From positions 7,163 through 71,162 of the forward strand of contig CAZICS010000003.1 in assembly GCA_964537835.1 (NCBI GenBank): DNA of 64,000 bases, written 5' to 3'. Made by a program: the position numbers and the translations under genes. The notes beneath the pieces are model-generated. The model made no database searches and was not told where the DNA came from. It saw only the letters and a program-made list of their open reading frames with translations. Below are positions 16,438 to 57,246 of the stretch, one piece after another (the stretch's first letter is position 1; every line of letters begins with the position of its first letter). Origin of the DNA: an uncultured archaeon. GTDB taxonomy: Archaea; Aenigmatarchaeota; Aenigmatarchaeia; CG10238-14; SCSR01.

Positions 16438-16522
16438 TGCGGCCGCCGGGATTCGAACCCGGGTCACCAGCTTGGAAGGCTGGGGTCCATTGGCGAGGTT
16501 AGCCAGACTAGACTACGGCCGC
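16438..16522 (-). tRNA. tRNA-Gly(UCC) with an oversized (21-nt) D loop
   Basis: Acceptor GCGGCCG/CGGCCGC. Anticodon arm CCAGC-CTTCCAA-GCTGG. T arm CCGGG-TTCGAAT-CCCGG. About 10 extra nt (16493-16502) in the D loop. Confidence 0.65.
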
Positions 16523-39164: not shown

Positions 39165-39278
39165 GCCCCCGTAGCTCAGTTTGGATAGAGCGGCGCCCTT
39201 CTATGCTAGGCATAGAAGGTTTGATTCAAGATGAAAGAAGAAAGGCGAAGGTCGCGGGTTCAAATCCCGCCGGGGGCA
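39165..39278 (+). tRNA. tRNA-Arg(UCU) with about 39-nt intron at 37/38
   Basis: Acceptor GCCCCCG/CGGGGGC. Anticodon arm GCGCC-CTTCTA[intron 39204-39242]A-GGCGA (27:43 is G/A). T arm GCGGG-TTCAAAT-CCCGC. Confidence 0.75.
39220..39237 (+). other. Conserved intron block TTTGATTCAAGATGAAAG (copy 1 of 3)
   Basis: Near-identical to 44684-44701 and 57165-57183. UUGA-N3-AGAUGA resembles a box D'/C' K-loop. Confidence 0.6.
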
Positions 39279-43020: not shown

Positions 43021-43106
43021 GCGGGGGTCGCCTAGTCTGGTCAATGGCGCAGGGCTTAGGACCCTGTGGCTTAGTGCCTGCGTGGGTTCAAATCCCACCC
43101 CCCGCA
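43021..43106 (+). tRNA. tRNA-Leu(UAG), class II, no intron
   Basis: Acceptor GCGGGGG/CCCCCGC. Anticodon arm CAGGG-CTTAGGA-CCCTG. Long variable arm. T arm GTGGG-TTCAAAT-CCCAC. Confidence 0.9.
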
Positions 43107-44629: not shown

Positions 44630-44753
44630 GGGCCTGTAGCTCAGCCTGGTAGAGCAGCGGGCTTTTAGCTTTAAGCTAAAAGCTTTGATTCAAGATGAGA
44701 GAAACCCGTACGTGTAGGGGGAATGGTCGGGGGTTCAAATCCCCCCAGGCCCA
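44630..44753 (+). tRNA. tRNA-Lys(UUU) with about 36-nt intron at 37/38 and a second 14-nt insert after the anticodon stem
   Basis: Acceptor GGGCCTG/CAGGCCC. Anticodon arm GCGGG-CTTTTA[44668-44703]A-CCCGT. Extra acgtgtagggggaa (44710-44723) before TGGTC. T arm GGGGG-TTCAAAT-CCCCC. Confidence 0.7.
44684..44701 (+). other. Conserved intron block TTTGATTCAAGATGAGAG (copy 2 of 3)
   Basis: See 39220-39237. Confidence 0.6.
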
Positions 44754-48841: not shown

Positions 48842-48927
48842 GGGCGGGTAGCTTAGCCTGGTTGGAGCGTCCGGCTGATAACTCATTGGAAACCGGAAGG
48901 TCGCCGGTTCAAATCCGGCCCCGCCCA
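48842..48927 (+). tRNA. tRNA-Ile(GAU) with 11-nt intron
   Basis: Acceptor GGGCGGG/CCCGCCC. Anticodon arm TCCGG-CTGATA[actcattggaa]A-CCGGA. T arm GCCGG-TTCAAAT-CCGGC. Confidence 0.8.
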
Positions 48928-57109: not shown

Positions 57110-57246
57110 GCCCCCGTCGTCTAGTCCGGCCAAGGATGCTGGCCTTTCGATTGAGTTCGAAAGGTTTGATTCCAAGATGAAAGCCAGCGACCCGGGAAAT
57201 ATAGAGTGTAACTCTATATTCGGGGATTCAAATCCCGGCGGGGGCA
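57110..57246 (+). tRNA. tRNA-Glu(UUC) with two introns (37/38 and 53/54)
   Basis: Acceptor GCCCCCG/CGGGGGC. Anticodon arm CTGGC-CTTTCG[57150-57181]A-GCCAG. T arm CCGGG[57197-57226]TTCAAAT-CCCGG. Confidence 0.75.
57165..57183 (+). other. Conserved intron block TTTGATTCCAAGATGAAAG (copy 3 of 3)
   Basis: See 39220-39237. One extra C. Confidence 0.6.

Follow-up and report, generated by a model that had tools for sequence, protein, structure and literature searches.

Why tRNA genes retain introns between nucleotides 37 and 38 is an old question, and in archaea it has been answered most clearly, to date, by the tRNA-Trp intron, a guide for methylation of its own precursor. The question returns in a 64-kb window from a member of the Aenigmatarchaeota (DPANN; GC content ~34%), which is the whole stretch of DNA analysed here and the one to which the pattern, intron and module coordinates below refer. 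The window's genes for tRNA-Arg(UCU), tRNA-Lys(UUU) and tRNA-Glu(UUC) carry introns of 32-39 nucleotides (nt) at 37/38, and all three are built alike, with a segment complementary to the anticodon loop of the same tRNA and, one nucleotide further on, a short block resembling the internal D' and C' boxes of archaeal box C/D RNAs. What might such a module do? Comparison with related introns suggests that it probably guides 2'-O-methylation of wobble nucleotide 34 (C34 or U34), in competition with the fold needed for splicing.

The three introns share one order of parts: a short loop, an 8-11-nt complement of nucleotides 31-37 and beyond, one U, UUGA, UUC(C)AA, GAUGA and a purine tail ending in ...GAA before A38. 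The tRNA-Arg(UCU) gene (39165..39278, + strand; exons 39165-39203 and 39243-39278) scores 56.1 bits against the Rfam tRNA model (model positions 1-71), and its 39-nt intron (39204..39242, +) at 37/38 interrupts an anticodon arm that reads GCGCC-CTTCTA / intron / A-GGCGA. The target strand (39197..39206, +), made up of nucleotides 31-37 and the first 3 nt of the intron with nucleotide 34 at 39200, is a perfect 10-base-pair (bp) complement of the guide-like segment (39210..39219, +), and the two form a hairpin in the minimum-free-energy fold; the fifth guide nucleotide upstream of the D'-like box, hereafter N+5, is 39216. A spacer U (39220) leads into the K-loop-like (kink-loop-like) block (39221..39234, +), an exact pattern match with the D'-like UUGA at 39221-24, the loop UUCAA at 39225-29 and the C'-like core GAUGA at 39230-34. 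In the purine tail that follows (39235..39242, +), sequence and constrained folding indicate that GAAG (39237-40) is able to pair with CUUC (39198-201) as the central helix of a splice motif, next to an AA/A bulge.

The same parts recur in the tRNA-Lys(UUU) gene (44630..44753, +; 54.8 bits against the Rfam tRNA model, which spans this gene and the Arg gene in full), whose main intron of 36 nt lies at 37/38 (44668-44703). Here the target strand (44661..44669, +; nucleotide 34 at 44664) is the complement of the guide-like segment (44675..44683, +; N+5 at 44680, spacer U at 44684) and the match can be extended to 11 bp, again as a hairpin; the block (44685..44698, +) matches the pattern with UUGA at 44685-88, the loop UUCAA and GAUGA at 44694-98, and AGAG at 44698-701 is also the splice-helix strand. 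A second, 14-nt insert at about 43/44 (44710-44723) is absent from the same tRNA in locus L095. The tRNA-Glu(UUC) gene (57110..57246, +) was assigned by hand, with the acceptor GCCCCCG/CGGGGGC, the anticodon arm CTGGC-CTTTCG...A-GCCAG and the T arm CCGGG/insert/TTCAAAT-CCCGG. Its 32-nt main intron at 37/38 (57150-57181) folds as a hairpin between the target strand (57143..57150, +; nucleotide 34 at 57146) and the complementary guide-like segment (57157..57164, +; N+5 at 57161, spacer U at 57165), and its pattern-matched block (57166..57180, +; UUGA at 57166-69, loop UUCCAA, GAUGA at 57176-80) abuts the 3' splice site, with GAUG as the sole candidate splice-helix strand. The second insert of this gene, 30 nt at about 53/54 in the T arm (57197-57226), contains a 9-bp hairpin. 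The first-pass annotation of this DNA had described the inserts at 37/38 as identically built, had found each complementary to its own anticodon loop and had noted that N+5 pairs with nucleotide 34 in all three tRNAs; the sequence reads as claimed on each count.

The pattern TTGATTC(N0-1)AAGATGA has only three matches in the window (39221-34, 44685-98 and 57166-80), all on the + strand, with none expected and none found in 100 dinucleotide shuffles of the window. A relaxed K-loop expression matched at 53 places in the window. Such a motif is thus common in bulk sequence, and the signal lies in its fixed position beside the guide, not in the motif alone.

Box C/D guides follow two rules, in that they pair with the target from position 2 on and form a Watson-Crick pair at N+5 (PMC7994747; PMC6009581). 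We compared the register in 49 curated introns, with anticodons assigned by hand and each intron anchored on its D'-like box. Unconstrained best-helix searches that allowed G-U gave spurious partners in the A/U-rich flanks, automatic picking of the anticodon stem was unreliable, and both were rejected. N+5 faces nucleotide 34 in 46 of the 49 introns, in guide helices of 5-11 bp, set against about 10-12 nt for the guides of canonical box C/D small RNAs. Among 40 distinct target/guide pairs from eight tRNA species, 88.8% of cells are paired at the N+5 register compared with 25-49% when the register is slid by 1-3 nt, and the covariation score is 0.72 compared with at most 0.16 for the slid registers, a value that none of 500 shuffles reached. 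The pair between nucleotide 34 and N+5 is Watson-Crick in all 37 standard cases (C-G 24, U-A 13), the other 3 of the 40 rows being Lys introns with shifted spacing that score as U-G at this register. Covariation is also seen between guide position 2 and nucleotide 31 (G-C 17, A-U 8, C-G 4, U-A 4, G-U 3), showing that the helix extends exactly one pair into the anticodon stem. Covariation of the complementary segment with the anticodon in relatives, which the first-pass annotation had put forward as a check, is thus present in eight tRNA species. In tRNA-Leu(CAA) of loci L104 and L110 the module sits in an intron at about 30/31, so that the target is 3' of the module, and N+5 is still C34, with 9 perfect bp in L110.

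Is the block a K-loop? Our first scan was unable to test the conservation of TTGA and GATGA because it fixed those positions. A block-independent sample of metagenome tRNA-Lys(UUU) introns, retrieved through the anticodon hairpin and the T loop alone (GGCTTTTA, AAAAGC and the T loop, separated by gaps), comprised 107 loci with 95 distinct sequences, of which ~84 are genuine tRNA-Lys(UUU) introns; the counts combine automatic classes with a reading of the sequences rejected by the tRNA filter. An xYGA box stands exactly 1 nt after the guide in ~77 of the 84 introns (~92%), and in 68 (~81%) it is followed, 2-10 nt and most often 6 nt further on, by GA(U/A)GA. The 64 introns that fit the full pattern automatically have CUGA (31), UUGA (29) or, once each, UCGA, GUGA, AUGA and ACGA; their C'-like box is A(A/G)GAUGA or AUGAAGA, and the loop sequence varies freely. 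Since the CUGA...AUGAAGA type is present in tRNAs with exons matching those of the window Lys gene, the block changes between close relatives while its signature is kept.

In both main types the two strands could pair through sheared G-A and A-G, then U-U or A-U, then G-U or G-C, and finally A-U, in which the spacer U takes part. A kink-turn (K-turn) or K-loop is defined by tandem sheared G-A pairs next to a loop or bulge of 3 nt; here these would arise from the GA of xUGA facing the first GA of GAUGA or GAAGA. At the level of sequence, the internal order of D' box, short loop and C' box is present three times in the window, as UUGA, 5-6 nt and GAUGA. The first-pass annotation had called the block nearly invariant. 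That stands for the window, with exactly three matches, and fails in relatives, where the boxes vary (UUGA or CUGA, rarely AUGA, GUGA or UCGA; A(A/G)GAUGA or AUGAAGA); its reading of the order as D'-like and C'-like, however, appears sound, as the signature persists while the loop varies in Lys introns retrieved without reference to the block. From this pattern we judge it quite likely that the module is an L7Ae-type K-loop. Further introns of the same design are those of tRNA-Glu in L034 (AUGA-UCAA-AGAUGA) and L110 (AUGA-GCAUUGC-GAUGA), of Met and Trp in L158 and of Met in L209.

Some of these relatives have unusual features of their own. The two tRNA-Glu genes (L034, 6350-6463; L110, 5763-5873) have the anticodon loop CCUUCGA, with C33 in place of the near-universal U33, an intact module and an AUGA box. 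In L158 (13778-13929) the tRNA-Trp intron, ~100 nt long, combines the same guide with a GUGA box; its two boxes are separated by a 5-bp hairpin, and in the long extension on the 3' side no D box can be recognised. This intron may be intermediate between mini and full-size Trp introns. In L134, L144, L147 and ~25 similar metagenome loci, tRNA-Lys(UUU) genes with exons like those of the window have an extra intron of 16-20 nt at about 29/30, which closes with CUGA, UUGA or GUGA immediately ahead of G30 and whose interior is complementary to the target-guide loop of the main intron. Two sequence versions of this extra intron exist, with differences on each side of the pairing, so that the two introns of one precursor appear to covary.

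We next ask which tRNAs carry the module. A scan of one genome per species, with a loosened block followed by the T loop, returned at least 116 loci. Of the 116 matches listed, 42 are intron-bearing archaeal tRNAs (labelled Aenigmatarchaeota 24, 'uncultured archaeon' 16, Micrarchaeota 1, ambiguous 1), and the other 74 arose by chance, most of them in DNA of bacteria. Locus L077, labelled Methanosarcinales, matched the pattern with its guide out of register and was set aside as ambiguous. The carriers among the matches listed are Leu(CAA) (at least 12), Trp(CCA) (at least 8), Lys(UUU) (at least 6), elongator Met(CAU) (at least 5), Leu(UAA) (at least 5), Arg(UCU) (at least 4) and Gln(UUG) (at least 1); the CAU tRNAs have an anticodon arm of the elongator Met type, not that of the initiator. 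With Glu(UUC) from the window there are eight carrier species, and the module is found in at least about 50 introns from other genomes.

Using a finder based on the acceptor and T arm, we identified 14 tRNA species without the module in the same loci: Tyr GUA, Lys CUU, Glu CUC, Thr CGU, Thr UGU, Gly GCC, Gly UCC, Val CAC, Ser GCU, Phe GAA, Ala GGC, Asp GUC, Leu UAG and Ile GAU, several of which have other introns. Purine-ending codons of split boxes, or single codons, are read by all 8 carriers compared with 2 of the 14 non-carriers in the loci listed (hypergeometric p ~1e-4). The first-pass annotation had tied the module to tRNAs with U34. This does not hold, as three major carriers, Trp(CCA), elongator Met(CAU) and Leu(CAA), have C34, and two U34 tRNAs of the window, Leu(UAG) (43021-43106) and Gly(UCC) (16438-16522, - strand), lack the module, so that U34 alone is not the criterion. 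The block is also absent from the window's tRNA-Ile(GAU) (48842-48927, +). That one design recurs in this way across the phylum suggests that these introns have a job.

Several observations on module-free tRNAs and on annotation belong here. The window's tRNA-Gly(UCC) has a D-loop insert of ~13 nt and its tRNA-Ile(GAU) an intron of ~11 nt at 37/38, neither with the block, and both genes were missed by ARAGORN. Module-free introns of tRNA-Gly(GCC) in L099 (- strand) and tRNA-Thr(CGU) in L063 (445-526) contain pieces like the 3' half of the block (UCAAGAUGAAUC and UUCAAGAAA), which may be decayed or unrelated copies. Default ARAGORN called none of the three module tRNA genes of the window, and the Glu gene was not called with Rfam either; this gene escapes both because its second, 30-nt insert sits in the T arm. 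In its intron mode ARAGORN found many genes but misplaced introns and anticodons (Arg was called 'SeC(tca)'), and that output was not used. No Rfam family was found for the intron itself, the sole match being a chance one (E = 8).

The window's leucyl-tRNA synthetase (LeuRS) is 97% identical to an Aenigmatarchaeota protein, and all named proteins among the 120 matches listed (56-97% identity) come from that phylum. The closest sequenced relative is the metagenome-assembled genome behind L037 and L081, of which L037 alone shares neighbours with the window tRNAs. Block loops are near-identical among the window tRNAs and this sister genome and differ elsewhere among the tRNAs of one genome (L042/L059/L061; L158), suggesting recent spread or within-genome gene conversion in the window lineage. 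Three orthologues of tRNA-Arg(UCU) were found near LeuRS, one of which (L224, LeuRS 76% identical to the window's) keeps the module with an A-rich 8-nt loop, UUGA-AAAAAAAG-GAUGA; synteny around dCTP deaminase yielded too few relatives.

How does the guide-like pairing sit with splicing? Minimum-free-energy folds give the guide hairpin in all three window introns, and for Arg and Lys the splice-competent alternative, with the tail paired to nucleotides 32-35, lies ~5-7 kcal/mol higher in energy under constrained folding. The first-pass annotation had proposed an alternative 4-bp splice helix next to an AAA bulge and had argued that the two folds exclude each other; the helix is there (Arg CTTC/GAAG; Lys CTTT/AGAG with one G-U; Glu CTTT/GATG with one U-U), and both the free and the constrained folds agree that the two are incompatible. 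The archaeal bulge-helix-bulge has two 3-nt bulges with a 4-bp helix between them. Arg and Lys show this helix along with the 3' AAA bulge, and Glu shows 3 of its 4 pairs; the intron-side helix is absent. In most relatives the splice motif is weak and C32:G and U33:A are the only conserved pairs; in the window Glu intron and several relatives the central-helix strand comes from the C' box itself. The module introns resemble ordinary archaeal bulge-helix-bulge introns in their position at 37/38 and in a conserved ...AGAA/A junction, from which C32:G and U33:A arise together with a bulge of 3 nt at the 3' splice site. In the same genomes, ordinary introns (Ile GAU, Thr CGU, Val CAC, Tyr GUA) lack both a long anticodon complement and the block; the splice motif of the module introns is weak. 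Pairing between the K-loop loop and the tail (UUCC/GGAA) does not covary, the mean longest helix being 2.62 observed and 2.61 shuffled.

The genes for a methylation machinery were the other point of comparison. Locus L104, an Aenigmatarchaeota contig with a module-bearing tRNA-Leu(CAA), encodes fibrillarin (PF01269, E 4e-81) and Nop5 (PF01798, E 9e-53), the latter aligning with solved Nop5 structures through the coiled coil; it appears to be the ordinary dimeric kind. L7Ae is encoded in L062, L069, L073 and L087, all module-bearing Aenigmatarchaeota. The first-pass annotation had looked to these three genes as a check, and they are indeed encoded in the phylum, although not in the window. In L104 (4422-6870) fibrillarin and Nop5 lie 2-4 kb from the module tRNA-Leu(CAA), L7Ae lies <3 kb from the module tRNA-Leu(UAA) in L062, L069 and L087, and in L073 both are on one 8-kb locus; in small genomes such closeness is probably chance. 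All computational checks taken from the first-pass annotation favour the proposed architecture. What is established is the sequence architecture, the covariation, the register, the phylogenetic spread, the carrier set and that the phylum encodes the three proteins.

From these we infer the K-loop fold, binding of L7Ae, methyl transfer and an order of events, as follows. In the precursor, the 8-11-nt guide would pair with nucleotides 31-37/38 of its own tRNA, and the adjacent U-(U/C)UGA ... (A/G)GAUGA would form a K-loop through tandem sheared G-A pairs, to which L7Ae would bind. Nop5 and fibrillarin would then be recruited, and the nucleotide facing N+5, the wobble C34 or U34, would receive the 2'-O-methyl group. 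With a single K-loop, one site of the Nop5 dimer might stay empty, or two precursors might share one dimer. The guide helix would bury the 5' splice site, and the tail, or in some tRNAs the C' box itself, would have to pair with nucleotides 32-35 to make the splice motif. As that motif needs nucleotides 32-35, the precursor would have to leave the guide fold before the endonuclease could cut, and exit from this fold may set an order in which methylation precedes splicing. The excised intron, perhaps circularised, may also act in trans.

Known guides offer several points of comparison. The tRNA-Trp introns of Euryarchaeota have a full C/D set with two guides, for C34 and U39, and in Haloferax the intron acts in trans and is dispensable (PMC11408192). 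The module shares with them an intron at 37/38, a guide upstream of the D' box that is complementary to the tRNA's own anticodon loop, C34 at N+5 and incompatible guide and splicing folds, and tRNA-Trp is itself a carrier here, at 8 or more genome loci. However, the Trp guides are 60-105 nt long with complete C, D', C' and D boxes and the second guide for U39, whereas the module introns are 32-45 nt long, have one K-loop, one guide and neither a C nor a D box, and occur in eight tRNA species. The complete four-box set with a second, U39-type guide is thus missing, there being no D box; a terminal K-turn of box C (RUGAUGA) and box D (CUGA) is absent from the three window introns, which have no second C/D pair; and a regular expression for the canonical bipartite C/D small RNA, with full C-D'-C'-D, matched nowhere in the window. 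The tail after C' is no guide, because it is purine-rich and alike across different tRNAs (UAGGAAGA, AAGAA). Rather, the module corresponds to the half of an archaeal box C/D small RNA that runs D' guide, D' box, loop, C' box.

The first-pass annotation had named the Haloferax tRNA-Trp intron as the precedent, which it is, but a second one exists. The 66-nt intron carried by elongator tRNA-Met in Nanoarchaeum equitans has box C/D features and was proposed as a methylation guide (PMC3491384). Like the present case it comes from a DPANN archaeon, in which a tRNA-Met intron is the proposed guide, and elongator Met(CAU) is a carrier here too; it differs in being a single, longer case with box C and box D annotated and is not described as part of a family in several tRNAs (PMC3491384). 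In Pyrobaculum, trans-acting C/D small RNAs target tRNA nucleotide 34 (sR26 Trp C34, sR27 Gln U34, sR45 and sR46; PMC6009581). Chemistry, target position and some target tRNAs (Trp, Gln) would be the same as proposed here, but those are separate bipartite genes acting in trans, whereas here the guide would be embedded in the intron of its own substrate. A C34 target has been predicted in Leu(CAA) of P. furiosus, and archaeal tRNAs contain 2'-O-methylated derivatives of nucleotide 34 (Nm34), including Um34 in tRNA-Gln(UUG) (PMC7668247). We count in favour of a guide the overlap of the carriers with these RNA-guided Nm34 targets, namely Trp C34, the N. equitans Met intron, the predicted P. furiosus Leu(CAA) C34, and Gln U34 and Trp C34 in Pyrobaculum.

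There is also precedent for guides of half size. Single-domain eukaryotic C/D guides are reported to be active, as with a minimal Drosophila snoRNA in the account cited in PMC7994747; a 36-nt single-domain guide is likewise reported in work on the mouse tiSNORDs (bioRxiv 10.64898/2026.07.28.740266); and half-mer C/D ribonucleoproteins made in vitro have been crystallised (PMC6239191). These share with the module one K-motif and one guide of ~10 nt, but they are engineered or eukaryotic and run C box, guide, D box with a terminal stem, whereas the module is natural and archaeal, runs guide, D', short loop, C' and lies inside a tRNA intron. In full-text searches covering few subscription journals, we found no description of the module or of Aenigmatarchaeota tRNA introns with such a motif. 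The best reading, as judged from these comparisons, is that the module would extend the known tRNA-Trp and tRNA-Met intron guides as a minimal, single-K-loop form.

Several points weigh against a methylation guide. To our knowledge natural archaeal guides are bipartite, while the module is without a second K-turn, and fibrillarin, Nop5 and L7Ae were not found in the 64-kb window itself. Blocks of the window type have A or G (AAGAUGA or AGGAUGA) at the C' position normally occupied by U (RUGAUGA), the CUGA...AUGAAGA type having the U. K-turns that have a purine there are also bound by L7Ae. Uridine at this place, box C position 2 and the protruding loop nucleotide, is listed as needed for L7Ae binding (PMC7994747). 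Some guide helices are just 5-7 bp long, and in L104 and L110 the 5' part of the guide is also complementary to the 5' exon, which makes these Leu(CAA) introns a weaker test. Three Lys introns (L016, L023, L050) read GC-RUA-UUGA, with 2 nt of extra spacing, and ~7 metagenome Lys introns and L098 read GC-RUG-YNNA-hairpin-NAU-GA-CAG, in which the G of the D'-like box is not conserved. The extra 2 nt between guide and box place C32, not U34, at N+5. C32 is another common site of ribose methylation, and this class may have been retargeted to it, or the register could be one that the methylase does not read. The introns are, moreover, homologous, so that their common register is partly inherited and not independently selected. 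Finally, tRNA-Arg(UCU) is intronless in L225 and L226 (- strand, near LeuRS; LeuRS 60-64% identical to the window's), and from its absence in these two Aenigmatarchaeota relatives the module is dispensable.

Such presence and absence among Arg(UCU) orthologues would also be expected of a spreading or decaying intron family, in which the complementarity serves splicing pairing alone, the block is an element for the splicing endonuclease or for propagation, and the K-loop look and the N+5 register are by-products. Transposing intron families have been described in Thermoproteales, the blocks are near-identical in the window's three tRNAs and in the sister genome (L037, L081), and these tRNAs have many other introns at unusual positions. 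Yet splicing needs ~4 bp with nucleotides 32-35, which the tail provides separately, and the 8-11-bp guide helix competes with it; the block shifts in sequence (UUGA...AAGAUGA and CUGA...AUGAAGA, with loops of 2-10 nt) while the G-A/G-A signature and the spacing are kept; module-free introns of the same genomes are spliced without the block; and the carrier set is non-random. We therefore regard an intron family of this kind as unlikely.

Two other explanations keep the K-loop or the guide. L7Ae might bind the block without any methylation and serve as a clamp, chaperone or timer that protects the anticodon-loop hairpin and controls the formation of the weak splice motif. The one-nt spacing in ~92% of the unbiased Lys introns, the Watson-Crick pair that is always present at 34, the tracking of nucleotide 31 by guide position 2 and the coincidence of the carriers with tRNAs known elsewhere for Nm34 are all left unexplained in that case, and we give it a small probability, notwithstanding the K-loop signature, the 5-7 kcal/mol by which the guide fold exceeds the splice-competent fold in stability, the weak canonical splice motif of most members, the frequent use of the C' box as the central-helix strand and the register tolerance implied by the class with 2 nt of extra spacing. 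Alternatively, the excised intron, linear or circular, might guide in trans on spliced or mature tRNA, the precursor fold being incidental. The Haloferax intron is trans-acting (PMC11408192), circular tRNA introns and circular C/D small RNAs are known in archaea (PMC7994747), and circularisation would leave the guide flanked by the C'-like box and the D'-like box, an arrangement like that of single-domain C/D RNAs. The very stable hairpin of the precursor would nevertheless compete with pairing in trans, and we think exclusive action in trans improbable; it is also a variant of guided methylation of nucleotide 34 rather than an alternative to it.

To conclude, guidance of 2'-O-methylation by the intron itself accounts best for the module. 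More tentatively, and at rather less than even confidence, the Aenigmatarchaeota may possess a family of intron-embedded, single-K-loop guide ribonucleoproteins that install Nm34 (in one sub-class perhaps Nm32) on Trp, Met, Leu(CAA) and the split-box U34 tRNAs, with the switch between guide and splice folds acting as a methylation checkpoint before intron removal. This would be the logic of the tRNA-Trp intron in a stripped-down form of ~35 nt, with one K-loop and one guide, in eight tRNA species across a whole DPANN phylum, and its carriers are tRNAs whose wobble base must separate purine-ending from pyrimidine-ending codons. If true, a minimal box C/D guide of natural origin would be defined, wobble modification would be tied to the order of splicing, and intron-rich tRNAs now missed or mis-called by ARAGORN and Rfam would gain an annotation signature. 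It would also mean that half a box C/D RNA works as a unit in nature, a point relevant to the origin of bipartite guides, and would supply a direct selective reason for introns at 37/38, explaining their retention in reduced genomes.

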